Positions 7,076 to 25,976 of a stretch of 32,000 nucleotides of DNA are shown here, piece after piece. Within the stretch, counting starts at the first letter, position 1. The number at the start of each line of letters is the position of its first letter. Made by a program: the position numbers and the translations under genes. The DNA is taken from contig NZ_AP022314.1 in the NCBI RefSeq assembly GCF_009936235.1, forward strand, positions 4,093,735-4,125,734, given 5' to 3'. The stretch is from Mycobacterium xenopi. GTDB lineage: Bacteria > Actinomycetota > Actinomycetes > Mycobacteriales > Mycobacteriaceae. The notes below the pieces were generated by a model. It was given only the letters and a program-made list of their open reading frames with translations, ran no database searches and had not been told where the DNA came from.

Positions 7076-7795
7076 ATGAACCACACCTCCCCGGTGGCAT
7101 CCCGTCGACGCCACATCCTGCGGCTGGCGCTCTTCGCCGGCGTGTTGTTCGTGGTGTTTTACCTGGTGGCCGTCAAGCAGGTCATCGACGTCGCGGCGCT
7201 GCGGCGGGCGATCTCGGCGACAGGGCCGGTGGCGCCGCTGGCCTATGTCGTGGTGTCGGCCGGGCTTGGGGCGGTGTTCGTGCCGGGCCCGGTTCTGGCC
7301 GCGGGCAGCGGGTTTCTGTTCGGTCCGCTGCTGGGGATCGCCGTGACATTGGGTGCGACGGTGGGCACCGCGGTGGTTGCGAGTTTCGTCGGCCGTCGGG
7401 CCGGGCGGGACAGCGCGCGGGCTCTGCTGGGCACCCAACACGCCGAACGCCTCGATGCGCTGATCGACCGAGGCGGGCTGTGGGCGGTCGTCGGACAGCG
7501 CTTCGTTCCGGGCATCTCGGATGCGCTCGCCTCCTACGCGTTCGGGGCGTTCGGAGTTCCGTCGTGGCAGATGGCGGTTGGCTCGTTTGTCGGTTCGGTG
7601 CCGCGGGCGTTCGTCTACACCGCGCTGGGCGCTTCGATCGCGGAGCGGTCGAAACCGTTGGCCTACGCGGCGATCGTGGTGTGGTGCGTGACCGCGGTCG
7701 TCGGGGTGGACGCTGCGCGGCGCGGCTACCGGACATGGCGTGCGCATCATCGGCCGGGCAGTGGCCGCCCGGATTCCGATAGCGACGCATGTTGA
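7076..7795 (+). CDS. DedA / TVP38-TMEM64 family integral membrane protein
   Basis: 239 codons from ATG 7076. Several hydrophobic helices, a GSGFLFGP-type motif and [20 protein letters not shown]. It diverges from the methyltransferase gene across only 33 bp. Confidence 0.8.
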
Positions 7796-7898
7796 CCGGA
7801 GTGTCGCGGACGAAACCGCGGCACTCCAGCGCCCAGTCCTCCGACACGCCGCGGTCCGTGGCTTCACGGCCCACCGCGGGCGGCCTAGGGTGGTCGCC

Positions 7899-10433
7899 AT
7901 GGCTAAAACGGTCCAGCCGATGCAGGCCCTCGCGAGGATCCTGACCGAACACGGCCCGCTGCACATCGACGAGATCGGGCAGCGGCTGCGGGAGGCCGGC
8001 GTCGCCGAACCGGATATACCGTCACCGGCGGACATTGAAATGGAATGTCCGGCAAGGGAACTCGTGGACGAGCGATGGGCCTGGCTGTCGGCGGTGCTCG
8101 CGGGCCGCGTGTTTACCCACCGGCTCGGTGCCGACGAGGTGGCCCACGACATGCTTGCTGTGTCGCCGGACCTGGACCCGATCACCTCGCTGTGCGAACA
8201 CGACGAGTATCAGCGGCTCGTCGACGGGTCGGCGGCCCAGGTCGTGCTCGCCGAGTTCGATGACGAGCTGCTCGAGGAGCGCGGCATCCCCGTCGAGGCA
8301 GTCGACCCGGGCGGTGCGCTGCTGCTGGAGCCGCGCACGCTTACGGGGTTGCAGGTGACCGAGGGCGACCTGGTGGGGCTGCGGCTGACCGAACAGGGAC
8401 TCACGATCGAACGCGTCACTGCACCGGTACCGCACGCGGAGGTCGGCGCCCGGCTGGCGGCGGTGCTCGATGACGACGAGCCGCGGCTCTTCGACCAGGT
8501 GGTGTGGACGGCGTGCGTCGAGGATCCGGCGGCATTTACCGAGCCGCTGGCACCGCTGAGCGAGATCGCCGACGACTGCGGCCTGACCCGACGCGGCGAA
8601 TGGCTCGCACCGGCCGGATTCGATTTCGCCCGTTGGGATTTCGAACGCGGCTGCGCGCGGCTGGTGGAACGCCACGACATCGACCCCGACGACGCGTTCG
8701 CGGTATACACGCTGGTGCAACTGCATGAGCAGGTATCGCTGGGGATCGACGCCGCCGAATCGGGCGAGCCGCACGACCAGGCCGCGCCGCGACCCACCGA
8801 CGACCGGCTCTTCCAACTGCTGGGCAAGCTCGGGGCCGCGTTGGCCGACCCGCTGCTGGCAGTGCTGCTGGTGGACGAGACGATCGGCAGCGGTTGCGAG
8901 GGCGCGGCCGGGCTGGCCTTGTTGGCCGCGATGCTGGAGCCGGAGGTGCCACGTCCGGCGCAAGTCGCGTTTCGCTGGCTGCGCGCGGTGGCGCTGGAAC
9001 GGCTCGGCGCCATCGACGCGGCCGAGCGTGAGCTGCTGGCGGCCGAGTCGATGGATCCGGACTGGCCGCTGCCGCTGCTGGACCTGGCCCGCTTTGCCTC
9101 CGATCGCGGCGACGTCGAGCACGGGTTGGGATTGCTGCGCCGCGCTGGCGTCGACGAGGACTACCCGCTGTTCGAGCTGCTGCGGCAGTATCGGGCCGAG
9201 CCGCGAAGCGGGCTCGGCCGCAACGAACCGTGCTGGTGCGGGTCGGGTCGCAAGTACAAGAAATGCCATCTCGGGCGTGAGCGGTTGCCGCTGGCCGAGC
9301 GGGCACGCTGGCTGTATGCGAAGGCCGTCCAGCACGCGCTGCGGAGCGGCTGGAATGACCTGCTGATCACGGTGGGCTACGAGCGCTGCCGGCACGCCGA
9401 CGACGATCCCGACGCGCTGGAGCGGGCGCTGGACGATCCGCTGGTGATCGACGCGGTGCTGTTCGAGGGCGGGGCGTTCGCGGAGTTCCTCGAGATGCGC
9501 GGGTGGCTGCTGCCCGACGACGAACGGCTGCTCGCCGAGCAATGGCTGCTGGTCGAGCGGTCGGTGTTCGACGTCGAACAGGTGCGCCGCGGCCAGGGCG
9601 TCACCCTGCGCGACGTGCGCACCGGCGAGCGGCACGCGGTGCGTGAGCGAACGGCCAGCCGCCAGCTCGAGCCCGGACAGCTGATCTGTACCCGCGTGCT
9701 GCCCGCCGGGGACACCATGCTGATCTTCGGCGGGATCGACCCGGTCGCGCTGCACGAGCGCGATGCGCTGATCGACCTGCTCGACACCCAACCCGACCCG
9801 GTGACATTGGTGGCGTGGCTGAGCCGCCGGTTCGCGCCGCCGACGCTAGTCAACACCGAGGGCGACCCGCTGACCCTCTGCGAGGCCCGCGTTCGGGTGA
9901 GTGACCCAGCCAGGATCCAGGCCGCGCTCGACGACACCTACGACCGGGTCGACGGCGACGGGCCGCAATGGTTCGAGCTCGTCATTACCGATGGCGTGCA
10001 ACGGATTCGGGCCACGCTGGCCTTAGACGGCGACACGCTGCGGGTGGAGACCAACAGCGAGGAACGGATGGAGCGGGTGCTGGCCACGCTGGCCCGCCTC
10101 GACCCGGCGATGAACGTGCTGGACGACGAGCGCCGCCCGATGCGTGACATGCGGCAGGTCGCGCGGTTGGCCGAGGAGCTGCCCGACGCGGACCCGCTTG
10201 AGCCTGCCGATCCCAAAGTGGCTGCGGCCCTTGAGGAATTCATCCGGGACTACGAGACACGCTGGCTCGACGAGCCGATTCCCGCGCTCGACGGCCACAC
10301 CCCGCGGCAGGCCGCCGACGACCCCACCCGGCGCGGCGATCTGATCAAACTCCTGGACGGCTTTCCCGCCGGTCCAGCCGCCGGCGGCGGTATGGATGCC
10401 GACCGGCTGCGCGCGGCGCTCGGGCTGCGGTAG
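7899..10433 (+). CDS. Large SEC-C motif (SecA-type metal-binding) domain protein, otherwise uncharacterised
   Basis: 844 codons from ATG 7899, preceded by AGGGTGG. Internal SEC-C motif [17 protein letters not shown]-terminal [26 protein letters not shown] segment. High GC3 throughout. Confidence 0.8.
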
Positions 10434-10521
10434 CCGACAGATCGGCGCCCGACGGTGGCGACGTCGCAGCGGTGCAACGACAACCTCGAATGTGGCGGCC
10501 TTGGCGGCGCATCATGGAAGG

Positions 10522-11673
10522 GTGCGGATCGCAGTAGGGGTTTCCACCGCGCCCGACGCGCGACAGGCCGCGGCGGAGGCGGCAGCGCAGGCGCGCGACG
10601 AACTCGCCGGTGAGACGCCGTCGCTGGCCGTACTGCTCGCGTCACAGTCGCACACCGACCACGCTGCCGAGGTCCTGGGCGCAGCGCAGGAAATCGTCGA
10701 GCCGCCCGCGCTGGTCGGCTGCGTGGCGCAGGCCGTCGTCGCCGGCCGCCACGAGTTCGAGGATGAGTCCGCGGTGACGGTGTGGCTGGCCTCCGGCCTG
10801 CCCGCCGAGACGTTCCACCTGGACTTCATCCGCGCCGGTTCGGGTGGGCTGCTCAGCGGCTACCGCTTCGACCGGACCGGCGACGATCTGCACCTGCTGC
10901 TGCCCGACCCGTACACGTTCCCGTCGCACCTGCTCATTGAGCACCTCAACACCGACCGGCCGGATGCAACACTGGTGGGCGGTCTGGTCAGCGGCGGGCG
11001 CGGATCGGGCGATGCCCGACTATTCCGCGACCGTGACGTCCATAGCTCCGGTCTGGTCGGCATGCGGCTGCCCGGCGGGCGGGCCGTTCCGATCGTGTCG
11101 CAGGGTTGCCGGCCGATCGGCCACCCATACATCGTGACCCGCGCGGACGGCGCGGTGATCACCGAGCTGGGCGGGCTGCCGCCGCTGCTGCGGCTGCGCG
11201 AGATCGTCGAGGGGCTGCCGCCTGGCGAGCAGGAACTCATCAGCCGCGGCCTGCAGATCGGCATCGTCGTCGACGAGCACCTGGCGACCCCGGGGCAGGG
11301 CGACTTCGTGATCCGCGGCCTGGTGGGCGCCGACCCCTCGACCGGGGCGATCGAGATCGGCCAGGTGATCGAGGTAGGCGCGACCGTGCAGTTTCAGGTC
11401 CGCGACCCGGTAAGCGCCGACAAGGACCTGCGCCTGGCCGTGGAGCGGGCGTTGGCTGAGCTGCCCGGGCGCCCGGTGGGGGCGCTGTTGTTCACCTGCA
11501 ACGGGCGGGGTCGGCGCATGTTCGGGGTCGCCGATCACGACGCCTCAACCATTTCCGAGCTGCTGGGCGGCATTCCGCTGGCCGGTTTCCTCGCCGCCGG
11601 GGAGATCGGCCCGATCGCGGGCCGCAACGCGCTGCACGGGTTTACCGCGTCGATGGTGCTGTTCCTGGAATGA
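10522..11673 (+). CDS. FIST N/C domain sensory protein
   Basis: 383 codons from GTG 10522, preceded by GGAAGG. The translation is typical of FIST proteins (...[15 protein letters not shown]...[29 protein letters not shown]). The size and position after recD recall M. tuberculosis Rv0628c (from memory). Confidence 0.8.
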
Positions 11674-11736: not shown

Positions 11737-13347
11737 TCAAGCGCGCACGGCGCGCGCTGCCGCGGTAGCGACGTCACCGCGCAGATCCGAGATCGGTGAA
11801 CTGCCGCGCACGTGGATGGCGTTCGAGAGCAGGACCACGTAAGTATCTGAGCCTGGGTCCAGCCATAGCGAGGTCCCGGTGAACCCGGTGCTTCCAAAGC
11901 TGCCGACGGGAAACACCCTGCCGCGCGGCATCGAATATGGCGTATCGATATCCCAGCCGAAGCCGAACAGGTTCTGCCCCTTGATCGCTGGATACGTCTT
12001 CGCGATTGCTTGGCGGGCGGCGGCGTTGGCAGCGTCGAGTTGGTGGGCACTATGCCCGGGCTGCTGCGGAGTCGTCATCAACTCCAATGTCGTTCGCTTA
12101 AGCGGAAACATGCTCGGACGGCCTGCGAGCCGATCCAACAGGGCCTGCGCATAGATACCGACATCGTGCGCGGTCGAGAACACGCCGGCATGCCCGGCCA
12201 CTCCGCCCATGCGGCGTGCCGTCGGGTCATGCACAGTGCCACGAAGCAGGGCGTCGTAATCGGGGTTCTTGCCGGGATCGGCCCTGCTTTCTTCATCATG
12301 TGCTGTCGGTGCGATGCGCGTCAAAAGGCTTGCGCTCCAACTGCCTTCCGGGCAGTCGGTCGGCATGTGCCCGGGTGCCCAGACAACCGCCGCTCCCCTA
12401 GTCTGGTGTGGGCCACATGCTTTGGCGGCGGGAAGATAGCTAGTGTCTGTCATACCCAGCGGTGCAAAGATATTGCGCTGAGCATAAATGTCTTCGTCCT
12501 CGCCGGTGAGCTTTTCGAGCAGTGCGCCGAGCAATAAGTAGTTGATGTCGGAATAGCGGAAAACCTCACCGGGCGCCGCCTGCAGCGGCGTGGTGAGTGC
12601 CCGATGGATGCCTTCGGTCTTATCGACGGTGTCCAGTCCCCACGGATCTGCGAGGTTGACGTCTATCGGTTCGCCTGACGTGTGAGTCAGCAACATGCGA
12701 ACTGTCACCTGTGCGCGCTGCGGGTCGTTGGCCGGGTTGAAGTCGGGCAAATACCTCTGCACGGGATCGTCGAACTGCACCTTGTCTTGTTCATAGAGCT
12801 GCATGAGGGCGGTCGCCGTCGCCAGGCCCTTCGTCAGCGACGCGATGTCGAAGATGGTGTCCTCGGTCATCGGCTCGGCCGGTGCGGGCGATCCGTCCAG
12901 CCCCGGTTCGCCGGCCAGCTTGCGCGCACCGTACGCCTGATGGAAGACGACTTGGCCGCCGTGCCCGATCACCACCACAGCGCCCGGCAGCCGCTGTGCG
13001 GCAACCGCGTCGTTCATCAACGTGGAGACCGGCGCGAAGTCGGGGGCGGGCGACGGTTCTGGTGGCCGCGTCGCCTGCGCGCTCTCGCTTACGGTTGGGT
13101 GCGCTGCATTGATGGGTGCCGCAATCGGCGCCGGCGTTGCTTTGGCTTTGTCGCTTAGTTTTGTCTGCGCTTCGTGGCCACGCGCGCAACCCGCGGCGAG
13201 TGCAAGCACGACAGTCCCGACAGCAATGGCAATTCGCGCAGACGGCTTGCGGGCCGGGCCCCGCAGACCGGTCCGGGATCGATGAGAGCCGTCGCCGATG
13301 ATTACCCGTGTCAGCGTAGCGAGTCCGGCGGGTAGTCGCGGGAACAA
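11737..13347 (-). CDS. Beta-lactamase-related serine hydrolase / esterase, probable lipoprotein
   Basis: 536-codon ORF. SxxK active-site motif (FDIASLTKGLATATAL). N-terminal signal with lipobox VLALAAGC. The exact start is uncertain. Confidence 0.85.
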   Translation of the reverse strand: MFPRLPAGLATLTRVIIGDGSHRSRTGLRGPARKPSARIAIAVGTVVLALAAGCARGHEAQTKLSDKAKATPAPIAAPINAAHPTVSESAQATRPPEPSPAPDFAPVSTLMNDAVAAQRLPGAVVVIGHGGQVVFHQAYGARKLAGEPGLDGSPAPAEPMTEDTIFDIASLTKGLATATALMQLYEQDKVQFDDPVQRYLPDFNPANDPQRAQVTVRMLLTHTSGEPIDVNLADPWGLDTVDKTEGIHRALTTPLQAAPGEVFRYSDINYLLLGALLEKLTGEDEDIYAQRNIFAPLGMTDTSYLPAAKACGPHQTRGAAVVWAPGHMPTDCPEGSWSASLLTRIAPTAHDEESRADPGKNPDYDALLRGTVHDPTARRMGGVAGHAGVFSTAHDVGIYAQALLDRLAGRPSMFPLKRTTLELMTTPQQPGHSAHQLDAANAAARQAIAKTYPAIKGQNLFGFGWDIDTPYSMPRGRVFPVGSFGSTGFTGTSLWLDPGSDTYVVLLSNAIHVRGSSPISDLRGDVATAAARAVRA

Positions 13348-14163: not shown

Positions 14164-14574
14164 TTATTGCGCGTCCGCACCCAGCCCCGGCACCTCCGAT
14201 GGGTGACGAACGTCGACGAGGTCATCGATGATCCGGAAGTCCCCTGCGTTGTGGGTCAGGAGCGGCACGCCGTGAACGTTTGCGGTAGCGGCGATGACGA
14301 GCTCGACCGAGCGGCGCCGCGGCCGGCCGCCCCGGTTGCGCACAGCGGCCGACAGCCGGCCCCATTCTCGCGCGACCTCGGCCGTGACCGGAAGCGGATC
14401 GAACGCGGATTCGATCGCGCCGAGCCGCGCCGTACGAAGCGCGCGTTCATCGTCGTCGGCTGCGACGAGAACGCCAAAGTGCAGCTCGGCAATCGAGGCA
14501 ACGCTGATCGCGGCCTCGACGCGCGAGGGCGGTTCCTCCCCGATAAGAACGGAGGTATCGACTATTGCGCGCAT
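14164..14574 (-). CDS. vapC: VapC toxin (PIN-domain ribonuclease)
   Basis: 136 codons. N-terminal acidic PIN motif MRAIVDTSVLI, later LLTHNAGDF. It lies 3 nt downstream of its antitoxin gene. Confidence 0.85.
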   Translation of the reverse strand: MRAIVDTSVLIGEEPPSRVEAAISVASIAELHFGVLVAADDDERALRTARLGAIESAFDPLPVTAEVAREWGRLSAAVRNRGGRPRRRSVELVIAATANVHGVPLLTHNAGDFRIIDDLVDVRHPSEVPGLGADAQ

Positions 14575-14844
14575 CGGTTAGTCGAACGGACCGGCCATCG
14601 AGGCGGGGAACCGCTTGAGGTCGGCGCCCAGTGTTTTGGGAGCCGGCGTGCGCCAGACCGCCCGCAACCCCGGCCCGCTGACCCACCGCTTCTGCATGGC
14701 GGGGCCAAGCTGCGCCACCGGCCGGCCTGCGACGGTGATCGTGATCTCCTCGCCCGCTTCTGCCCGGCGCAGAACCTCGCCGACGTTATTGCGGAGTTCC
14801 TTTTGGGGAATCGTTGCCATGACCACGATGGTAGGAGAACTGCT
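14405..14844. repeat. Copy 1 of a ~440-bp dispersed duplication (vapB plus 5-prime part of vapC)
   Basis: By eye this aligns base for base with 23521-23958. Differences are scattered substitutions and a 2-nt indel at the vapC start. Confidence 0.85.
14578..14826 (-). CDS. vapB: VapB antitoxin (Phd/YefM-like N-terminus)
   Basis: MATIPQKELRNNVGEVLRRAEAGEEITITVAGRPVAQLGP... The probable start is ATG 14820 (GTG 14826 is also possible). It sits immediately upstream of vapC. Confidence 0.85.
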   Translation of the reverse strand: MVMATIPQKELRNNVGEVLRRAEAGEEITITVAGRPVAQLGPAMQKRWVSGPGLRAVWRTPAPKTLGADLKRFPASMAGPFD

Positions 14845-14914
14845 ACCAGGACCGAGCCTGGCGCATACTACCCGAACGGGTCGGCAGCCGGAAACCGGTC
14901 AAGGTGCGGTCCGC

Positions 14915-17900
14915 TCAGGCGAGCAGACCCCGGATGTCGTCGGCGGTCAGGGCGGAGGCAAACACGTCACCGTCGTCGATCACGCTGGCGAACAGCTTGG
15001 CTTTGCGCGCGTTGAGGGCCAGCACCTTGTCCTCGATGGTGTCGCGGGCGATGAGCCGGTACACCATGACATTGCGGGTCTGGCCGATGCGGTGGGTGCG
15101 GTCGATGGCCTGGGCTTCGGTGGCCGGGTTCCACCACGGGTCGAGCAAAAAGCAGTAGTCGGCCTCGGTGAGGTTCACCCCGAACCCACCGGCCTTGAGG
15201 CTGATCAGGAAAACCGGTGCGTCCCCATCTTTGAACCGCCGTATCACGTTGGCGCGGTCGCGGGTTCGCCCGTCGAGGTAGCAGTAGCCGATGCCTTCGG
15301 CGTCGAGGCGACTGCGGACCCGGCCGAGGAAACGGGTGAACTGACTGAACACCAGCGCGCGATGGTCGCCGCCGACGACGTCGCGCAGCTGCTCGGCCAG
15401 CGCGTCGATCTTCGCGCTGGCCAGCGTGTCGTGTGCCGGGTCGACGAGCCCGGGGTGCAGCGCCATCTGACGCAGCACGGTCAGCGACTTGAGGATGGTA
15501 AACCGGTTGCGCTGCATGTCGTCTAACAGGCCAAGCACCTTCTGCCGCTCGCGGGCCAGCCGCTTGTCATACAGCGCCCGGTGCCGCGGCGGCAGCTCGA
15601 TATCGAGGATTTGCTCTTGCTTGGGCGGTAGCTCGGCGGCCACGAGCTCCTTGGTGCGCCGTTTGACCAGCGGCTTGATCCGGCGGCGTAACAGGGCCAA
15701 AAGCTCGGCGTCGCCGGTCTTTTCGATGGGCTTAGCGAAGTAGTCGGCGAACTTCACCGGGTGGGGGAATAACCCCGGGGCGGTGATCGACAGCAGCGAC
15801 CACAGCTCCATCAGATTGTTCTCCATCGGTGTGCCGGTGATCGCCAGCTTGAACGGTGCGGGCAGCCGGCGTGCGCACTGGTAGGTCTTGGCGTGGTGGT
15901 TCTTGACGTATTGGGCCTCGTCGAGGATCAGCCCGGACCACGTTCGGGCGGCGTGGGCGTCGAAGTCCAGCCGAAACAGCGTGTAGGAGGTGACCACGAT
16001 GTCGGCGCCCGCCGCCAGCTCGTCGAGGTCGACGCCGGCGCGGCGCAGCGTGTCGAAGATCGGTACCACCGACAGCTCCGGCGCGAACCGCGCGGCCTCG
16101 GCGGCCCAGTTCGCCACCACACTGGCCGGTGCGACGACAAGGAATGGTGCCATGGCCTGATTCTGTTGGCGGACATGGCAGATCAACGCCAGCGACTGGA
16201 CGGTCTTGCCCAGGCCCATGTCGTCGGCCAGGATCCCGCCGAGCCCGTGGGCGTGCAGGGTCGCCAGCCACGAGAACCCGTCGACCTGATACGGCCGCAG
16301 CTGCGCGCGCAGGCCGACCGGCACCGCCGTCGGTTCCAAGCCCTGCAGCGCCCGCAGCCCGCCGACCTGCCGCTGCCACGCCTTGGCCTGCCGCGTCACG
16401 ACTCCGAGCTCAGCCAGCTCGTCGAACAACCCGACCTGGAATCGGCTGATCCGGGGTGGTCCTTCGTCGGCATCGGTGAGCGCGCGGGCCTCTTCGATGA
16501 GCTGGCGCAGCTTCACCAACTCCGGCTTGTCCAGCGCGAAGTAGGCGCCGTCGGCAAGCAGCAGGTGCGATTGGCCGGACGCCAGCGCGGTGAACACGCT
16601 TACGAACGGAACCGCTTTGCCCTCAACGCTGATCGTGACACCCAGGTCGAACCAGTCCGTCTCGCCGGGCACCGCGTCGGTGCGCACCGCGATCACGAGC
16701 GAGCCGCCCGCTTCCCGGTAGTCGGCCGGGTCGCCGGTTACCTCCAGCGCGACGTCGGAAAGCTCTGCGAGCAGCGGTTGGAGTTCAGTGGCGAATCGCA
16801 TGGTGTCCACGCCGGAAAGCCGTGTTCCGGCGAGCGTGCCGTCGGCGCCGCGAAGCCCCCACTGCTCCAACGGAGCGTCGATGCTCGACGCAAGGGCGTA
16901 CTCCGCAGCCAGGTCTCGGTACGCAGCATGCTGCGGCGTGCCTGTCGGTACGCGAAAGCCGTTGTCGCCTAATCGATATTCCCATTCCCAGGCCAGCTCG
17001 AGTTCGTGGTCGGCCTGGTAGTGGGCCCGCAGCACCAGTGCCGGCCCGACGACCTCGGGCGGCGTGAACGACTCATCCGACGACGTGACGGCCGCGATGT
17101 GGCGCAACCTAGGGTAGTACTCCGTAGCGAACTGCGGCGCTTGGTCCGCCGGGATCACCAGCGGCTTATCACCGAGTGCCATGCGCTGCAACGCTTCCGG
17201 CACCGGCTGGTCCAGCCGCGCGAGCCGCAGCCCGCCGTCGGCATACACCGCGCCATGACCTGACGACCCGATGAACGCGATGGGCCGTGTCGCGGTGCCT
17301 TCGACGTTCAGCACGGGCGTGACGGTGAGGTCGCCCGTCGTGCCGGCTGTCACATCCAGGCACAACCGCGCGGTGGCGTACGTCGGAACGTCCTGCCAGG
17401 GGCGTGGCTGCAGCAACCGCACCCCGACTCGTCGCGCTTCGTCCAGTAGCGGCCACAGCTGGGGTGAGTCGAATCGCAGCAGCGCCATCGTCTTCTCGTC
17501 GCCGTACGAATACCCGTAGTAGACAGTCGAATTCGAGCGCGACGTCCGGTACGTCGCATACAGTTCCTGCAGCAGCCGGACCTGAGCGGCGGGATAATCG
17601 CTGTAGCGCAGCATGTGCAGCCTGTCCCAGCGCAGGTCGCCTGCGACCCAGCCGCCGCGCTTGCCGGGCCGCACCAGCCGTGCGTCCAGGGCCGGCGACC
17701 GCCCGCTCACCGACAAGCTGAGCTCGATCGCCAGCGGTGTCCCGATGCGATCGTTCGCCGGGGCCGACGGAAGCAACGCATCCAGCGACTGCCGCCAAGG
17801 CGGCGGAGCTGGCGAAGGCGACGCCGGCTTGATGGTGGCTTCTGCGGCCGTGGCGACGATCGCGGCGACATGCTTGCAGTTGAAGTGCACCGGGCAGCTG

Positions 17901-18139
17901 CAAGATCCAGTGTCAAAGCACCAGGTGCGGGTGTCGAACGGCACCAGCCGCACCGTGGTGGTGTAGGGACGGGGCTGGTTACCGCGAACTATGCCGAAAA
18001 GGTTGCGCAGCTTCGGATCCCACCGGCAGCCCAGCACCCGCCCCTGGCGCGCGTACGCTAGGCCGCGGCGCCAGGTCTCGGTGTCAAGCTCGTCGAACGT
18101 GCTGTCCAGGTCGATCTGCGGATACGCCGGTGACTGCAT
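14915..18139 (-). CDS. SWIM zinc-finger / SNF2-family helicase (HelZ-like)
   Basis: 1074 codons from ATG 18139. SWIM motif CSCPVHFNCKHVAAI near the N-terminus. SNF2 core: LADDMGLGKT, LILDEAQYVKN, LAITGTPMENN, VFSQFTRFL, GGFGVNLTEADYCFLLDPWWNP, QAIDRTHRIGQ. The track ORF extends to 18682, but that part overlaps the divergent gene. Confidence 0.9.
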   Translation of the reverse strand: MQSPAYPQIDLDSTFDELDTETWRRGLAYARQGRVLGCRWDPKLRNLFGIVRGNQPRPYTTTVRLVPFDTRTWCFDTGSCSCPVHFNCKHVAAIVATAAEATIKPASPSPAPPPWRQSLDALLPSAPANDRIGTPLAIELSLSVSGRSPALDARLVRPGKRGGWVAGDLRWDRLHMLRYSDYPAAQVRLLQELYATYRTSRSNSTVYYGYSYGDEKTMALLRFDSPQLWPLLDEARRVGVRLLQPRPWQDVPTYATARLCLDVTAGTTGDLTVTPVLNVEGTATRPIAFIGSSGHGAVYADGGLRLARLDQPVPEALQRMALGDKPLVIPADQAPQFATEYYPRLRHIAAVTSSDESFTPPEVVGPALVLRAHYQADHELELAWEWEYRLGDNGFRVPTGTPQHAAYRDLAAEYALASSIDAPLEQWGLRGADGTLAGTRLSGVDTMRFATELQPLLAELSDVALEVTGDPADYREAGGSLVIAVRTDAVPGETDWFDLGVTISVEGKAVPFVSVFTALASGQSHLLLADGAYFALDKPELVKLRQLIEEARALTDADEGPPRISRFQVGLFDELAELGVVTRQAKAWQRQVGGLRALQGLEPTAVPVGLRAQLRPYQVDGFSWLATLHAHGLGGILADDMGLGKTVQSLALICHVRQQNQAMAPFLVVAPASVVANWAAEAARFAPELSVVPIFDTLRRAGVDLDELAAGADIVVTSYTLFRLDFDAHAARTWSGLILDEAQYVKNHHAKTYQCARRLPAPFKLAITGTPMENNLMELWSLLSITAPGLFPHPVKFADYFAKPIEKTGDAELLALLRRRIKPLVKRRTKELVAAELPPKQEQILDIELPPRHRALYDKRLARERQKVLGLLDDMQRNRFTILKSLTVLRQMALHPGLVDPAHDTLASAKIDALAEQLRDVVGGDHRALVFSQFTRFLGRVRSRLDAEGIGYCYLDGRTRDRANVIRRFKDGDAPVFLISLKAGGFGVNLTEADYCFLLDPWWNPATEAQAIDRTHRIGQTRNVMVYRLIARDTIEDKVLALNARKAKLFASVIDDGDVFASALTADDIRGLLA

Positions 18140-18277
18140 GCCCGTACCGTAACGATCGGGTCTGACAACGAGCCGCGACACGCGCACGTGGTGCAGATGA
18201 GGTTTGACAGCCTGGCGTGACACGAAATGTTTGGGGGCGGCCCGCGCGGCCTTGCGGGAATCGGCAGACTCTGATTC

Positions 18278-19267
18278 ATGGCAGAGTTGCTGATCGCGGT
18301 GAACCCCGATGAGGATTCCCGGCTGCCGTATCTGCTGCGGATTCCGCAACCCGGTGGCGACCTGCTGTTTCGGACCGCGGGCACCTGGCCGCGGGTCAAG
18401 GCGCTGTACTGCTACCCGGTCAGCCTCGACGAGTGGCCCGCCGACCCCGTGATCGTCGAACGCGTTGCGCTGCGGTCGTGTCAGCGCCGGGGCGCGGCGA
18501 TCGACCTGATTGTGCAGCGGTCGAGGGAGAACCGCTCCCAGCTGGTGTTCACCACCGCCCGGGGCCGCGACGCGGTGTTTTGGCAATCGCCGCGCACCCG
18601 CAAGCAGGCCCGTCCGAATGTGCGCACCCCGACCGCCCGTGCCCAGGGCATCGAAGAACTGCAGATTCTCATCGACGCGCACGAGCAGTACGCCTACCGG
18701 TTTGCCGCCCAGCAGGCCAGCACTGTGCGGCGGGCGCTGCCGTGCGGCGACTACGGGCTCGTCGTCGACGGGCTATTGGTGGCCAGCGTGGAACGCAAAT
18801 CGCTGGCCGATCTGGTGGCCAGCCTGACCGGCGGCAAGCTGCGGTATCAGGTCGCCGATCTGGCCGCGCTGCCGCGCGCTGCGGTTGTCGTGGAGGACCG
18901 CTACTCACAGCTGTTCAAGCTCGACCGGGTCCGTCCCGCCGTGGTCGCCGACGGGCTGGCAGAGCTCCAGGTCCGCTGGCCCAACGTGCCGGTGGTGTTC
19001 TGCGAGACCCGCCAGCTCGCCGAGGAGTGGACCTACCGGTTCCTCGCCGCCGCGCACGTGTGGGCTGTTGGTGAAGGCGCAGCGCTGCAACGTATCTCAC
19101 CGATGCGGATCGACATCAGCGAACTCCATCTTGCGGCCGCCGCGCCGGAACCGAGCACCGCCGAGGTCCGCGCCTGGGCGCGCGCCGCCGGCCTACCAGT
19201 TCCCGAGCGCGGCCGCCTGCGCCCCGACATCTGGCAGGCGTGGCACGACGCCAACGACGCGACCTGA
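18278..19267 (+). CDS. Three-part protein: unplaced N-terminal domain, ERCC4 (XPF/Mus81-type) nuclease core, Lsr2-like C-terminal DNA-binding domain
   Basis: 329 codons. ERCC4 signature ILIDAHE...LPCGDYGLVVDG...ASVERKSLADLVASLTGGKLRYQ...AAVVVED. The tail STAEVRAWARAAGLPVPERGRLRPDIWQAWHDA parallels the Lsr2 C-terminus. It diverges from the SNF2 gene across 138 bp. Confidence 0.8.
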   Translation: MAELLIAVNPDEDSRLPYLLRIPQPGGDLLFRTAGTWPRVKALYCYPVSLDEWPADPVIVERVALRSCQRRGAAIDLIVQRSRENRSQLVFTTARGRDAVFWQSPRTRKQARPNVRTPTARAQGIEELQILIDAHEQYAYRFAAQQASTVRRALPCGDYGLVVDGLLVASVERKSLADLVASLTGGKLRYQVADLAALPRAAVVVEDRYSQLFKLDRVRPAVVADGLAELQVRWPNVPVVFCETRQLAEEWTYRFLAAAHVWAVGEGAALQRISPMRIDISELHLAAAAPEPSTAEVRAWARAAGLPVPERGRLRPDIWQAWHDANDAT

Positions 19268-19356
19268 GGGGCGCCGATGCCGGACACCCTCGGCCCAGGG
19301 TCCGTCCAGAGGAAACTACATCTGGGGGTGCAGCGTCGAAGGCGGACTGGCGTTGC

Positions 19357-19755
19357 TCATGGACGGTGAGCGGCCGAGATGTCGGTGTGGACGAAATCGT
19401 CACCCACGTACAGCAATGGTTCACTCCTCACCTTGGCGAGCGCATAGGAGTAGCAGTCGCCGAGGTTGAGCGCCGCCGGGTGCCCGCTGCCCCGCCCGAA
19501 GTCAAGGTAAGCCCGGCTGGCGATTTCAGCCTGCTCGGTGTCGAAGGGCACCAGTTCGATCTCCCACTCATCCAGTAGTCGCTCGACCCGGCGCAGATCC
19601 TCTGGGCGCAAGCGCCGCGCCAGGACGGCGTTGACCTCCACCATGGTGGCCGCCGACATCTTGGGCGCCGTCGCATCCACGAGGAGCTCGGCGAGCTGTT
19701 CCGCGTGCGTTGCACCACGCACAATCGCAACGATCGCCGAGGTGTCGACGATCAC
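19357..19755 (-). CDS. vapC: VapC toxin (PIN-domain ribonuclease)
   Basis: 132 codons. MIVDTSAIVAI..., [24 protein letters not shown]. There is a 4-bp overlap with the upstream antitoxin gene. Confidence 0.9.
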   Translation of the reverse strand: MIVDTSAIVAIVRGATHAEQLAELLVDATAPKMSAATMVEVNAVLARRLRPEDLRRVERLLDEWEIELVPFDTEQAEIASRAYLDFGRGSGHPAALNLGDCYSYALAKVRSEPLLYVGDDFVHTDISAAHRP

Positions 19756-20030
19756 GACGGCAAGCCGGCCTGGTCGTAGAGCTCTCGTTCCGCGTCCTTG
19801 AGCTGCGCTCGCTCCACGTCGGTCAGCGAACTATGCAGTTCATTCAGCAATTGACGCACACGGGCGTGTCGCCTCTCGCGCCGGCGCTGCGTATCGGTCT
19901 GGTCGCGATCCAGCTCGGCCAGTTTGGCGCGCACCGCTTCGGTGATCGCAGCCGTTTGGGTCAATCCCGTCCTCTTGGCGAGCTCGCGAACCAATGCGGT
20001 GGTTTCTTCGTTCTTGATGTTCAGGCCCAT
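19752..20030 (-). CDS. vapB: VapB antitoxin, Rv0623-like (PSK-type) transcription-factor family
   Basis: 92 codons. The N-terminus MGLNIKNEETTALVRELAKRTGLTQTAAITEAV is typical of the Rv0623-like antitoxin family. Overlaps the vapC start. Confidence 0.85.
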   Translation of the reverse strand: MGLNIKNEETTALVRELAKRTGLTQTAAITEAVRAKLAELDRDQTDTQRRRERRHARVRQLLNELHSSLTDVERAQLKDAERELYDQAGLPS

Positions 20031-22358: not shown

Positions 22359-22751
22359 CTACGGCTGGCCCGCCGCGACGGGCAATCCGAGCTCGGCTGC
22401 TCGAGCGGCGAGTTTGTCGTCGAAGGTGGCGATCGCGGCGTTGTACTGTTCCGCGCTGTAAAGCACGCAGCAGTCCGGCATCTTCAAACTGGTTGTAGCG
22501 CGCAACTCACCGAGACGGCGGGCAGCGCTGGCCGGAAGTTCCAGGCTCTCGATCTGCAACCGCGCCAGCAGCTGGTGAAGCCGGTCGGCTTGTGCGGCCC
22601 GGGCGGCCCCGACGTAGACCTCCGCGAGGGTGATCACGCTGGCGGCGAACGACTCTGCCGCGTGCGCCGCGAGTAGTCCGGTGGCTTCGGCGTGGTGGGC
22701 GTCGGCCGACTCGAAATGACCGATCAAAACGCTGGCATCGAGGATGATCAC
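22359..22751 (-). CDS. vapC: VapC toxin (PIN-domain ribonuclease)
   Basis: 130 codons. MIILDASVLIGHF..., later IATFDDKL. There is a 4-bp overlap with the upstream small gene. Confidence 0.85.
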   Translation of the reverse strand: MIILDASVLIGHFESADAHHAEATGLLAAHAAESFAASVITLAEVYVGAARAAQADRLHQLLARLQIESLELPASAARRLGELRATTSLKMPDCCVLYSAEQYNAAIATFDDKLAARAAELGLPVAAGQP

Positions 22752-23132: not shown

Positions 23133-23699
23133 ATGAAGCGCTCTTCGCGTCCTCGCAGCACCGCACCGGGTGTCGCAGTGTTCTTCGCCGTGCTCCTGAT
23201 CATCGGGCTGATCGTGAAGTTCTTCTGGTGGTTGATCGCGGCGGCCGCGGTGGCCGGGCTGTTCTTCGCGGCCCGCGCCGTTGTCCGCAAAGTGCGTGAG
23301 CGCCGGGCTGCTGCCGCCCGCGAGGCAGAGGAAATCGCGTACCGCGCAGACCGCCAAAACCAATGGGCTCGGCGCGGGGACAGCCGAGGTACCTACGGCG
23401 TCGCGGGCGCCGAGCTGATGCGCTCGATCTCACCCGAGCCGCCGCCGCTGACCCCCGACGCGGACGACTCGGAAATCAAGATCGCCGAAGTTGTCGACAC
23501 CAAAGACGGCTTAGCCAAATGCGGATTCGATCGCGCCGAGCCGCGCCGTACGAAGCGCGCGTTCATCGTCGTCGGCTGCGACGAGAACGCCAAAGTGCAA
23601 CTCGGCAATCGACGCAACGCTGATCGCGGCCTCGACGTGCGAAGGCGGTTCCTCCCCAATAAGGACGGAGGTGTCGACTACTGCGCATCGGTTATTTGA
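23133..23699 (+). CDS. Membrane protein of unknown family, 3-prime end replaced (chimeric read-through)
   Basis: MKRSSRPRSTAPGVAVFFAVLLIIGLIVKFFWWLIAAAAVAGLFFAARAV... has two TM helices and then a charged region. From 23521 the ORF runs antisense through the duplicated vapC fragment, so the last ~60 codons are not native. Confidence 0.5.
   Translation: MKRSSRPRSTAPGVAVFFAVLLIIGLIVKFFWWLIAAAAVAGLFFAARAVVRKVRERRAAAAREAEEIAYRADRQNQWARRGDSRGTYGVAGAELMRSISPEPPPLTPDADDSEIKIAEVVDTKDGLAKCGFDRAEPRRTKRAFIVVGCDENAKVQLGNRRNADRGLDVRRRFLPNKDGGVDYCASVI
23511..23688 (-). pseudogene. vapC: Truncated, frameshifted vapC copy
   Basis: Homologous to the first ~58 codons of vapC 14164-14574. ATGCGCAGTAGTCGAC replaces ATGCGCGCAATAGTCGAT (2-nt loss after codon 2). 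Homology ends at 23521 and a TAA follows at 23511-23513. Confidence 0.75.
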
Positions 23700-23958
23700 A
23701 CGGACCCACCATCGAGGCGGGGAATCGCTTGAGCTCGTTGCTCAGTGTTTTCGGAGCCGGCGTCCGCCAGACAGCTCGCAACGCCGGACCGCCGACCCAT
23801 CGCTTCTGCATGGCCGGGCCCAGCTGCGCCACTGGCCGGCCTGCGACGGTGATCGTGATCTCCTCGCCCGCTTCTGCCCGGCGCAGAACCTCGCCGACGT
23901 TATTGCGGAGTTCCTTTTGGGGAATCGTCGCGATGACCACGATGGTAGGAGAACTGCT
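23521..23958. repeat. Copy 2 of the ~440-bp vapB/vapC-5-prime duplication
   Basis: See 14405-14844. Both edges are sharp breaks in similarity. The left edge truncates the membrane-protein ORF and the right edge truncates a MazG-like gene. Confidence 0.85.
23692..23940 (-). CDS. vapB: VapB antitoxin paralogue (apparently intact, orphan)
   Basis: 82 codons. By my count it differs from the 14578-14826 product at 8 positions. The internal ATG of copy 1 is ATC here, so GTG 23940 is the only nearby start. Confidence 0.8.
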   Translation of the reverse strand: MVIATIPQKELRNNVGEVLRRAEAGEEITITVAGRPVAQLGPAMQKRWVGGPALRAVWRTPAPKTLSNELKRFPASMVGPFK

Positions 23959-24233
23959 GCCAAGCTAACGACGTCCTCGCGTCCCGATGGGCGCTGAGTG
24001 ACCCTCGGTGGCACCGGCTGGGCTTCGACGCTGGCGGCGGCCTCATCGATGGCGGCCTCATCGATGGCGGCCTCAGGGGTGCAAGGGGCGATGAGTTCGT
24101 CGACCTCTTCGCGCACCTTGTGGTGCGGTGTGGCGCGGTATTCGTCCAGGCGTAGCGCATCCATCGAAAGACCGCTGCCACTGGCCCATCGGCGGGTGTC
24201 TCGGAATTTGTCACGGCACTCAGCGCCCCTCAT
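23959..24233 (-). pseudogene. MazG-like (PRA-PH-type) nucleotide pyrophosphohydrolase, 3-prime truncated
   Basis: From ATG 24233: MRGAECRDKFRDTRRWASGSGLSMDALRLDEYRATPHHKVREEVDELIAPCTPEAAIDEAA... This parallels GKLVRDKIPDIIRASGRTPHV...LREEVDEL...IDEAADIIEV of the copy at 27235. It ends at the duplication edge. Confidence 0.5.
24036..24075. repeat. 15-bp tandem repeat GGCGGCCTCATCGAT, about 2.7 copies
   Basis: Units at 24036-24050 and 24051-24065, with a partial unit at 24066-24075. On the minus strand it encodes the AIDEA-AIDEA duplication inside the MazG-like remnant. Confidence 0.8.
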
Positions 24234-24466
24234 TTGCGGTTGGGGTGCCAGACGATCGGCGACCAGATGTGGTCGGAATAGTTGGACCGGCCGCCTTCGG
24301 CCCATTGGTTGCGCACTTTCCACGGAAACCACATCTGGGAGCGCGCACCGATGATGAGCGAGCCGCATGGGGTGCAAATGTGCACGCGGGGGGCGCCGTA
24401 TTTCCGGCAGGTGGGCTCCCGGCTCAGCCACCCACAGCCGTGGATGCGCCACTTATTTGTCGTCAT
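24230..24466 (-). CDS. Small Cys/Trp-rich protein of unknown function
   Basis: 78 codons from ATG 24466 (88 from GTG 24496): MTTNKWRIHGCGWLSREPTCRKYGAPRVHICTPCGSLIIGARSQMWFPWKVRNQWAEGGRSNYSDHIWSPIVWHPNRK. Very high GC3. Its TGA overlaps the ATG of the MazG-like remnant (ATGA). Confidence 0.5.
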   Translation of the reverse strand: MTTNKWRIHGCGWLSREPTCRKYGAPRVHICTPCGSLIIGARSQMWFPWKVRNQWAEGGRSNYSDHIWSPIVWHPNRK

Positions 24467-24559
24467 CTTGTCGCGGGTTAGCCGCCGCCGCGGCACTTGT
24501 AGGTGAGGACAGTCTTAGCACTGTGGACAAGCGGACCCGAGCCTCTACTACCGGTATGG

Positions 24560-25867
24560 CTAGAGGTAGTTTCCTTGGGGTAGTTGGGGTTTGAAGCGTC
24601 GGGATTGCACCGTGGCAATTAACCCGGCTTCGGTGACCGCACCGCCGGCAAGGACAGTGCGGCGCACGATCTCGCGGATATCCGCTCCACTGATCTCGCT
24701 GCCGAAGCGGGCCGCCACGGCTCGCACGTCGACGCTCTCGCCGCCGGGGACGCCGCGCAGATAGGTCGACAGGATCTTGGCGGCGGCATCGCGGTCCGGG
24801 TAGCCGATCTCGACGATAGAGTCGAAGCGTGCGGTGCGGATGGAGGCGGCATCCAGCGCCATGACGTCATTGGTGGAGGCCAACGTCAGGATGGGCGCGG
24901 ACGGGTCTGTATCCATCACGGCTAGGAATTCCGACAACGCGCGGGTGTCACTGCTCTTGCGACGGTCACCGACAATGAGGTCGAGATCCTCCAGCACAAT
25001 CAATGTCGGGCCGAGCGTGTGAGCTTCCTTGTATACCCCGGCCAAGGTGGACTGCCCGGCGCGGGCGTCGACGATTATCACGGTGAACGCGCCGAGCAAC
25101 TCTCGAGCGATTACCTGGGAAATCACGGTCTTGCCAACACCAGGCGGACCAGCCAGCAGCACACCGCGACGCACTCCCAGCGCCAAGTTGGTCATTAGCT
25201 CGCGGTGAGTAGTCACTGCCGCGACATTCAGGTCGATCTCCGACCATACCGATTCGGGCACAATGACATTCGAGCGTGTCACAGCGGGTAGGTCGGTGAC
25301 TTCAAGAACCAGGCCGTTGTGCTCGGTCGCGGTGAGTGCCTTACCACGAAACAGGTTCTTGGCGCCGTCGGCGTCGGCCATGATCGCCTCGATCACCGCC
25401 TGGCCATGTGCTCGGTCTGCCGGGGCTGTGTAGACCTGCAGTCGAGGTTCGTCGCTGAATCCGGCATATTCGCAGAGCCGCACCACCAGTGGCGCAGGAG
25501 CGAGCTCGCCGGCGGCGAAGTAGGCCGATAGGGCCGCCGGTGGTGCCAGGCGCTGTTCACCGATCTCGACGTGCCCCCAGGTGGGAGGTTCGTCATCGTC
25601 ACCCGGGCCGAGCCTGGGATCGAAGCGGTCGATCAGCGCGGCGATGGCCAAGCCTGCGGTTACGTGGCCGATCGAGGAGAGCTTGCGCGAGTCGCAGACT
25701 AACTCCGACCCGGGCCGGCCGAGAGTCTCGTGCAAAAACCCATCCAGCGTCGTCCGGGTGGTTACTGATCCAGAGAGGATCTGGCCGACAAGTTCGACGG
25801 CACGACGAACATCAGGGTTTTCGCCGGCCAAGGCGACTGCCGCCGACGATACCTGGACATCAGACAT
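24560..25867 (-). CDS. Classic-clade AAA+ ATPase with a ~230-aa unplaced N-terminal domain and a C-terminal GNYL
   Basis: Walker A LLAGPPGVGKT. Walker B of the BCS1-like LIVLEDLD type. Second region of homology ASIRTARFDSIVEIGYPD. Start ATG 25867 is preferred (GTG 25891 and TTG 25897 are possible). It ends ...FKPQLPQGNYL-stop. Confidence 0.85.
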   Translation of the reverse strand: MSDVQVSSAAVALAGENPDVRRAVELVGQILSGSVTTRTTLDGFLHETLGRPGSELVCDSRKLSSIGHVTAGLAIAALIDRFDPRLGPGDDDEPPTWGHVEIGEQRLAPPAALSAYFAAGELAPAPLVVRLCEYAGFSDEPRLQVYTAPADRAHGQAVIEAIMADADGAKNLFRGKALTATEHNGLVLEVTDLPAVTRSNVIVPESVWSEIDLNVAAVTTHRELMTNLALGVRRGVLLAGPPGVGKTVISQVIARELLGAFTVIIVDARAGQSTLAGVYKEAHTLGPTLIVLEDLDLIVGDRRKSSDTRALSEFLAVMDTDPSAPILTLASTNDVMALDAASIRTARFDSIVEIGYPDRDAAAKILSTYLRGVPGGESVDVRAVAARFGSEISGADIREIVRRTVLAGGAVTEAGLIATVQSRRFKPQLPQGNYL

Positions 25868-25976
25868 GACTGACAGTCTGCCGCCATGCACCGACAACGG
25901 CTGAAGTGCAATTGGCGCCCGGACGAGCCGGACTAACGCAGCACTGGTTGTCGGTCGCTTTGGCTAGGTTTCGGCC

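Follow-up and report, generated by a model that had tools for sequence, protein, structure and literature searches.

An XPF/Mus81-type nuclease beside an SNF2 helicase in Mycobacterium xenopi: probably two independent genes and not one system

The ERCC4 nucleases form homodimers, and those of the XPF/Mus81 kind are usually regarded as archaeal and eukaryotic; in archaeal Hef, a superfamily 2 (SF2) helicase is joined to the same nuclease fold. SNF2 proteins belong to the Dpd, Zorya and DISARM systems. Here we analyze a locus of Mycobacterium xenopi in which a gene for a SWIM-SNF2 helicase stands divergently beside a gene for a 329-aa ERCC4-type nuclease with an Lsr2-type tail. It lies in a stretch of 32,000 nucleotides (contig NZ_AP022314.1, positions 4,093,735 to 4,125,734, forward strand), hereafter the window. 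An earlier note on this DNA had proposed that the two genes form a DNA-targeting system, carried together as cargo at a toxin-antitoxin (TA)-rich variable spot. We consider it likely instead that they are two functionally independent genes, joined by insertion and local rearrangement in a TA-rich, plastic region of M. xenopi. Literature searches on ERCC4 together with Lsr2 and SNF2, on ERCC4 on plasmids and on ERCC4 in defence returned nothing relevant, and a description of an ERCC4-Lsr2 nuclease family as insertion sequence (IS) cargo was likewise not found.

Domain content of the two proteins

The 329-aa product is 100% identical to a M. xenopi protein, and Pfam, profile and Foldseek searches all support the XPF/Mus81 fold that the earlier note had read in its centre, with catalytic residues intact. 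A profile built from 23 diverse relatives retrieved Hef (1j22) from the PDB at E = 2.4e-11 and aligned the DxRE, GDY and ERKxxxD motifs with those of Hef residue by residue; across these relatives the catalytic set (D133/E136, G157-D158, E172-R173-K174 and D178) is invariant or nearly so. A first AlphaFold model, made with 30 close homologues, was poor (predicted local distance difference test score, pLDDT, 54.7) and was replaced by one made from the 23 diverse relatives (pLDDT 88.8). In a Foldseek search of the PDB, the ERCC4 core matched Hef (E = 5e-8), XPF and Mus81, with E values ranging up to 1e-4.

The N-terminal domain, which the earlier note had left as some 125 unplaced residues, indeed gives no Pfam match in isolation even at E = 10, and its fold can now be likened to that of the LigD 3'-phosphoesterase (PE). 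In our single predicted model, Foldseek paired the domain with two archaeal LigD 3'-phosphoesterase structures, 3p43 (E = 1.8e-4, probability 1.0, template-modelling score 0.63 on the target) and 3p4h (E = 0.016), suggesting that the first 110 residues form a similar beta-barrel without sharing sequence similarity with LigD-PE. Catalysis by LigD-PE depends on a metal- and phosphate-binding set of His, Asp, Arg and Tyr residues. Because aa 1-125 of the window protein contain no histidine, and the family has no conserved His or Asp there, the metal-binding set cannot be present and the phosphoesterase chemistry would not be retained; the barrel is probably non-catalytic. It is also the best-conserved stretch of the protein.

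At the other end, the predicted Lsr2-like tail proved genuine: the DNA-binding domain of Lsr2, an actinobacterial xenogeneic silencer, matches the C-terminal 34 residues, including the RGR motif. Here the Lsr2-type part is appended to a nuclease which, unlike Lsr2, has no Pfam match to the N-terminal oligomerisation domain. In more distant relatives its place is taken by winged-helix domains or left empty. PADLOC assigned the protein to no defence family except through this tail.

Set against its closest described relatives, the protein shares fold and catalytic signature with the Hef nuclease domain and short archaeal XPF, and its order of core and C-terminal DNA-binding module parallels the archaeal layout of nuclease plus (HhH)2. 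It differs from Hef and XPF in that the tail is Lsr2-type (winged helix in relatives) and gives no HhH match, and in being bacterial, encoded by a lone gene and borne on plasmids and transposons; it differs from Hef and FANCM in having the PE-like barrel at its N-terminus and no fused SF2 helicase. Its domains suggest a self-sufficient, single-gene endonuclease which, like ERCC4 nucleases in general, would act as a homodimer. Through its intact GDxnERKx3D site it may cut branched DNA such as flaps, forks and nicked junctions, with the Lsr2-type tail anchoring it on AT-rich or distorted DNA and the histidine-free barrel serving as a DNA-end-binding or partner-binding module.

The 1074-aa minus-strand protein is 99% identical to a protein from M. 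xenopi RIVM700367. The open frame extends to 18682; we accept the internal start codon because homologues begin at the same MQS..YP..ID N-terminus. It has the N-lobe, the Helicase_C lobe, the Walker A (GLGKT) and the DExx (DEAQ) motifs of an SNF2 family ATPase, the last two read from the translation, so that the complete SNF2 core described in the earlier note is confirmed. The SWIM finger described with it is present as a weak, sub-threshold Pfam match, and its CxC..CxH motif is retained in homologues (for example CSCPVQADCKH in locus L093); SNF2_assoc also scores below cut-off (E = 2e-4). By homology, the protein would be an ATP-driven double-stranded DNA translocase of the bacterial Swi2/Snf2 kind. 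With RapA/HepA and Bacillus subtilis YwqA it shares the SNF2 N-lobe and Helicase_C, and many bacterial SNF2 proteins also share its N-terminal SWIM and SNF2_assoc region. HepA and YwqA are RNA-polymerase-interacting translocases and are poorly characterised (PMC7385302).

The PADLOC model for DpdE, PDLC02851, matches the helicase over its full length (757 bits). However, the helicase falls far under every NCBIfam equivalog cut-off tried: 224 bits against 1500 for ZorD, 41 against 500 for DpdE, 85 against 950 for DrmD, 34 against 576 for RapA and 407 against 1200 for the SCO1167 family. Given an NCBIfam DpdE score of just 41 bits, PDLC02851 is probably a model of this SWIM-SNF2 family and not of true DpdE. 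Nor were the genes that accompany an SNF2 component in Dpd, Zorya or DISARM recognised among the scanned helicase neighbours. These comprise PIN, Phd, ERCC4, FIST and SEC-C proteins and include neither the Dpd cluster (DpdA-C, DpdD-K), nor ZorABC-like genes of type I Zorya, nor DrmA, DrmB, a methylase or DrmC of DISARM; without dpd neighbours, the DpdE match alone defines no Dpd system.

Joint occurrence of the helicase and nuclease genes

We compared 84 nuclease loci (80 from a scan of one genome per species, three exact-sequence look-ups and the window) with 82 helicase loci (80 from a metagenome scan and two genomic loci, with at least 1.3 kb available upstream in 64 and downstream in 63). 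The scanned nuclease homologues are 66-91% identical to the window protein. Their hosts are Mycobacterium, Mycolicibacterium, Rhodococcus, Nocardia, Pseudonocardiales, Micromonosporaceae, Parafrankia, Nocardioidaceae, Acidimicrobiia and Solirubrobacterales, and some of the contigs measure 1-6 Mb (up to 5.9 Mb). An orthologous helicase lies within 10 kb in only four of the 84 (the window, L001, L028 and L029), and two more loci (L005 and L007) have just a distant SNF2 gene of 36-39% identity; the nuclease gene is thus solitary in about 95% of loci. Seen from the other side, one of the 82 helicase loci has an intact nuclease gene (L100, 3 kb downstream, in the arrangement of L028 and L029) and one an internally deleted remnant (L093), leaving about 98% of helicase loci without the partner. 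Where both genes occur, they do so in at least three arrangements. The claim that the two genes form one system is therefore not supported.

DNA comparison places the limit of conservation at the nuclease gene itself. In blastn of 83 loci against the window, similarity in most begins at 18233-18288 and ends at about 19234-19269, and ends earlier in the most divergent; what the loci share is the gene itself with no more than 16-45 bp of the DNA before it. Neither flanking-ORF (open reading frame) clustering nor a Pfam census revealed a conserved neighbour across the 84 loci: no ORF family recurs in more than 14 of them, and the 144 nearest neighbours fall into 161 Pfam families, led by Phage_integrase (8), rve (5-6), PIN (4) and DUF6262 (4). 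Within the short shared upstream segment, the GGCAGACT motif, -10-like and 7 nt before the nuclease ATG, keeps this spacing in most Mycobacterium-like copies, whose DNA farther upstream is unrelated, and is possibly a portable -10-like promoter element for a leaderless mRNA. A consensus scan of 14700-19500 for promoters and terminators was uninformative and gave no sigma-70 match.

The helicase has its own history, separate from that of the nuclease. Its orthologues, 52-85% identical in the metagenome scan and 52-89% across mycobacteria and other Actinomycetota, drop to 64-65% within Mycobacteriaceae, whereas the nuclease remains 67-91% identical across three classes of Actinomycetota, from Mycobacteriales, Pseudonocardiales and Micromonosporales to Acidimicrobiia and Solirubrobacterales; this far stronger conservation of the nuclease over comparable distances is a poor fit with co-evolving partners. 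The commoner neighbours of the helicase gene encode a universal stress protein, a SixA-like phosphatase, a Clp-N-like protein, acetate kinase and phosphoketolase, and in the mycobacterial subgroup a Phd-VapC pair lies directly 3' of it, in the same order in L028, L029 and L100. Beside helicases 78-85% identical to that of the window, other genes occupy the place of the nuclease and no intact ERCC4 gene is found. The remnant in L093 (11298-11606) sits directly past the helicase stop codon, convergent as in M. servetii (L001), and is evidence for gain and decay beside the helicase. The helicase belongs to a widespread actinobacterial SWIM-SNF2 family whose divergence broadly tracks species, whose chromosomal position differs by clade and which, in mycobacteria, is often followed by a Phd-VapC module.

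The suggestion that this is simply the HelZ neighbourhood was rejected. The helicase orthologues of M. canettii and M. shinjukuense lie between a methyltransferase gene and the xerD-pyrG block, which we take to be the Rv1701-Rv1703c area of H37Rv and not Rv2101. A literature search on helZ turned up only passing mentions.

The closest relative found, L171, is a 7-kb contig with a helicase 89% identical to that of the window, and these two alone share the divergent pair. The block that L171 (1639-6048) shares with the window, at 89% identity, covers exactly window positions 14852-19278 (4,437 bp); the L171 flanks correspond to window positions 24229-24812 and 25109-25896, in a different order. 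The block thus sits differently within the same neighbourhood, which points to local rearrangement in a TA-rich region and supports the variable setting that the earlier note had suspected. That note had also called the pair about 4.4 kb of cargo. Something here is indeed cargo, although the mobile unit is the nuclease gene of about 1 kb and not the pair: except in L171, homology between loci ends at the nuclease gene.

Several observations nevertheless weigh against independence. The pair stayed together through at least one rearrangement, that between the window and L171, with different flanks. Nuclease and SNF2 genes became adjacent in no fewer than four ways. They are divergent in the window and in L171, and convergent in L001 and, as a remnant, in L093. 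In L028, L029 and L100 they run in the same direction, the nuclease gene following Phd-VapC and a 660-aa gene, and in L005 the nuclease gene is divergent from a paralogous SNF2 gene. By a rough calculation for random placement (84 loci, 5-Mb genome), about 0.4 adjacencies would be expected against the four observed, which span about three lineages. Such an excess would be explained if both kinds of gene favour TA-rich, recombination-prone islands, and a weak functional affinity that neither gene depends on may also contribute. The earlier note had held that its proposal would fall if the two families did not co-occur beyond chance. The adjacency is somewhat above naive chance, which speaks for the proposal, but it is rare and variable in arrangement, so that the outcome comes close to such a failure.

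Could the pair still be a genuine two-gene defence module, in which an SNF2 motor translocating on foreign DNA passes it on to the ERCC4 nuclease or is licensed by that enzyme, with the Lsr2 tail finding AT-rich DNA? The divergent genes 138 bp apart, the 4.4-kb block kept between other flanks in L171, the TA-rich region and the modest excess of adjacency would suit such a module, as would the use of SNF2 proteins in Dpd, Zorya and DISARM and the full-length PADLOC 'DpdE' match. However, the partner is missing from nearly all loci of either gene, order and orientation differ where both occur, and close relatives hold the helicase without the nuclease or with a decayed copy. The nuclease is also found on small plasmids and in a transposon without any helicase, PADLOC has no defence match for its core, and the unequal conservation of the two proteins does not suit co-evolving partners. 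We therefore regard a defence module as very improbable.

A facultative, split version of a Hef/FANCM-like fork-processing pair, encoded together in some genomes and in trans elsewhere, also seems unlikely. It draws on Hef being the best structural and sequence match and a natural fusion of SF2 helicase and nuclease, and on ERCC4 genes adjoining SNF2 genes of two different subfamilies. Yet nothing conserved ties the two families together, and the N-terminal domain of the nuclease is not helicase-like. Weak evidence on the same side is that species of the M. avium complex and the M. ulcerans group carry the nuclease on plasmids, while their names are absent from the best 120 SNF2 matches (down to 59% identity, many of them nameless).

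On balance, then, we favour two functionally independent genes, and the nuclease gene would need no neighbouring helicase. Two of the loci with both kinds of gene have further features of their own. In L005 (6817-10984), an 89%-identical nuclease gene is divergent from a different SNF2 helicase, whose N-terminus differs and which matches the window helicase over the C-terminal half of the latter at 39% identity; genes for a SEC-C motif protein and for Phd-VapC follow. In M. servetii (L001, 5981-14682), the nuclease gene, a frameshifted helicase copy and three transposase genes are inserted in a ribosomal-protein cluster, between sulfatase/FGE genes and rplN.

Mobility and possible roles of the nuclease gene

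The nuclease gene moves without the helicase. By tblastn, 26 plasmids carry it, their hosts being Mycobacterium, Rhodococcus, Streptomyces and Pseudonocardia; mycobacterial carriers include M. avium p2-JPH1, 21-kb plasmids of M. intracellulare/chimaera, plasmids of M. ulcerans and M. pseudoshottsii, and pMUM002 of M. liflandii, and one M. chubuense plasmid has the gene at three places. Its plasmid contexts vary, with resolvase, IS21, IS110 and tyrosine integrase genes among them. Copy number and position also vary among close species, and several genomes have two or three copies. Examples of plasmid positions are NC_011355.1 (pMUM002) 165910-166905, NZ_AP020328.1 34479-35477 and NZ_CP015276.1 1077-2072. 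An IS21 IstB gene abuts the 3' end of the nuclease gene in pMUM002, in the M. avium plasmid and in M. parascrofulaceum (L010).

In other genomes the gene is copied inside an IS3-family element, in the manner of IS with passenger genes. In the unit of 2,463 bp, the transposase genes (IS3-type orfA and orfB) are followed by the nuclease gene, and this by the right-hand one of the 27-bp inverted repeats at the two ends. One metagenome-assembled genome (MAG) has three copies, 99.9-100% identical, in two loci, and with those of L013, L015, L025 and L027 the total is seven copies in six loci. All seven are flanked by perfect 3-bp target duplications (GTT, GGA, GAC, ATG, CCC, GTG and CCC). On the strength of the inverted repeats and target duplications, the sequences identify the nuclease gene as a passenger of an active IS3-family transposon. 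The window copy differs in lacking the IS3 repeats: no match to the 27-bp repeat occurs in the window at up to three mismatches, and the idea that it lies inside the IS3 transposon was discarded.

A third setting is found in L031, L034 and L081, where the gene follows two tyrosine recombinase genes (about 434 and 730 aa) and a DUF6262 gene at close spacing, a run that looks like one operon of an integrative element. A phage origin was rejected, none of the phage records or viral contigs searched carrying the family. In these settings the nuclease gene, with a short upstream element of its own, is carried across Actinomycetota by plasmids, an IS3-family transposon and tyrosine-recombinase elements.

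The family also reaches well beyond these elements. An exhaustive search of cluster representatives returned 333 nuclease clusters at E ≤ 1e-30, and the bacterial branch comprises hundreds of clusters at 50% identity. A distant, winged-helix-tailed subfamily occurs in MAGs labelled Chloroflexota, Trueperaceae and Bacillota; in four loci of this subfamily the gene is solitary, in ordinary metabolic surroundings, with an SNF2 neighbour in none.

Two roles may be considered for the nuclease: an element-borne conflict or maintenance factor, or a horizontally spread repair enzyme. In the latter, the protein would be a housekeeping XPF acting on flaps, crosslinks or end-joining intermediates, with the mobile elements incidental to its spread. 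The very strong sequence conservation is consistent with this, as are the ordinary metabolic contexts of the distant relatives (Chloroflexota, Trueperaceae and other MAGs) and the likeness of the barrel to the LigD phosphoesterase of end joining. However, the inverted repeats and target duplications that bound the transposon and the enrichment of recombinase neighbours argue that the elements are not incidental, and copy number and position vary among close species while plasmid carriage is common. A repair role is possible but doubtful; it concerns the nuclease alone and is compatible with the pair not being a system.

We tentatively put forward the 329-aa protein as an undescribed, widespread bacterial branch of XPF/Mus81 that works alone, its ERCC4 core being active, its LigD-PE-like barrel catalytically silent and its DNA-binding tail exchangeable. 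Its Lsr2-tailed form would be cargo of transposons, plasmids (mycolactone plasmids among them) and recombinase elements, and might serve as an element-borne weapon or maintenance factor cutting branched or AT-rich DNA; the adjacency to SNF2 genes would then reflect a real, dispensable affinity.

Neighbouring genes and implications

Both flanking modules named in the earlier note (as VapB5/VapC5-like and VapB30/VapC30-like) are real: on each side, Pfam finds a PIN toxin gene directly downstream of a small antitoxin gene, the VapBC arrangement. The divergent layout of the pair and the DedA homologue it described were also confirmed. Genes upstream include recB and recD, the DedA/VTT gene, a 913-aa protein whose sole recognisable feature is a SEC-C motif (7692-10433) and a FIST-domain protein (10345-11673); SEC-C and FIST proteins adjoin the helicase region in L170 too, in a different order. 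More PIN and Phd/YefM genes lie downstream (22359-22751 and 23692-23940), giving at least four TA-type genes or modules inside 10 kb. Coordinates of all features are collected in Table 1.

Table 1. Features of the helicase-nuclease locus and of nuclease-bearing elements elsewhere. Positions are those of the window unless a locus label is given.
Feature	Position	Strand	Basis or remark
SWIM-SNF2 helicase/translocase, 1074 aa	14915..18139	-	Pfam; ATG at 18139
SWIM zinc finger, aa 77-95, CSCPVHFNCKH	17855..17911	-	Pfam SWIM E 8e-3, below gathering score
SNF2 ATPase N-lobe, aa 617-898	15446..16291	-	Pfam PF00176 SNF2-rel_dom E 3.6e-62
Helicase_C lobe, aa 910-1019	15083..15412	-	Pfam PF00271 E 7.9e-20
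Divergent intergenic region	18140..18277	.	138 bp between helicase and nuclease genes
GGCAGACT motif, -10-like	18263..18270	+
Stand-alone XPF/Mus81-type nuclease, 329 aa	18278..19267	+	PE-like barrel + ERCC4 + Lsr2 tail
N-terminal all-beta domain, aa 1-110, LigD 3'-phosphoesterase-like fold, histidine-free	18278..18607	+	predicted model
ERCC4 nuclease core, aa 132-255, DxxE, GDY, ERKxxxD	18671..19042	+	Pfam E 4.9e-20
Lsr2-type DNA-binding tail, aa 292-325, with RGR	19151..19252	+	Pfam PF23359 E 8.2e-9
Phd/YefM antitoxin + PIN (VapC) module, downstream of helicase	14164..14826	-	Pfam; PIN 14164-14574, Phd/YefM 14578-14826
Rv0623-like antitoxin + PIN (VapC) module	19357..20030	-	Pfam PSK_trans_fac E 1e-18, PIN 1.1e-18; PIN 19357-19755, Rv0623-like antitoxin 19752-20030
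DedA/VTT gene	7076-7795		domain scan
Beta-lactamase-like ORF	11737-13347		ORF list; outside domain scan of neighbours
IS3-nuclease unit copies	L023 8621-11083; L013 140-2598; L015 1502-3967; L025 5171-11083 (interrupted); L027 8621-11086; L061 3550-6011 and 8621-11083
Recombinase-nuclease runs	L034 572-5469; L081 685-5371; L031 17-2143

These results mean that the pair is best set aside as a defence candidate and that the nuclease alone is the part worth following. It is a clean single-gene target for biochemistry, and cleavage of branched or AT-rich DNA in vivo, should it occur, could influence how stably plasmids are kept, transposition, horizontal transfer or repair in mycobacteria.

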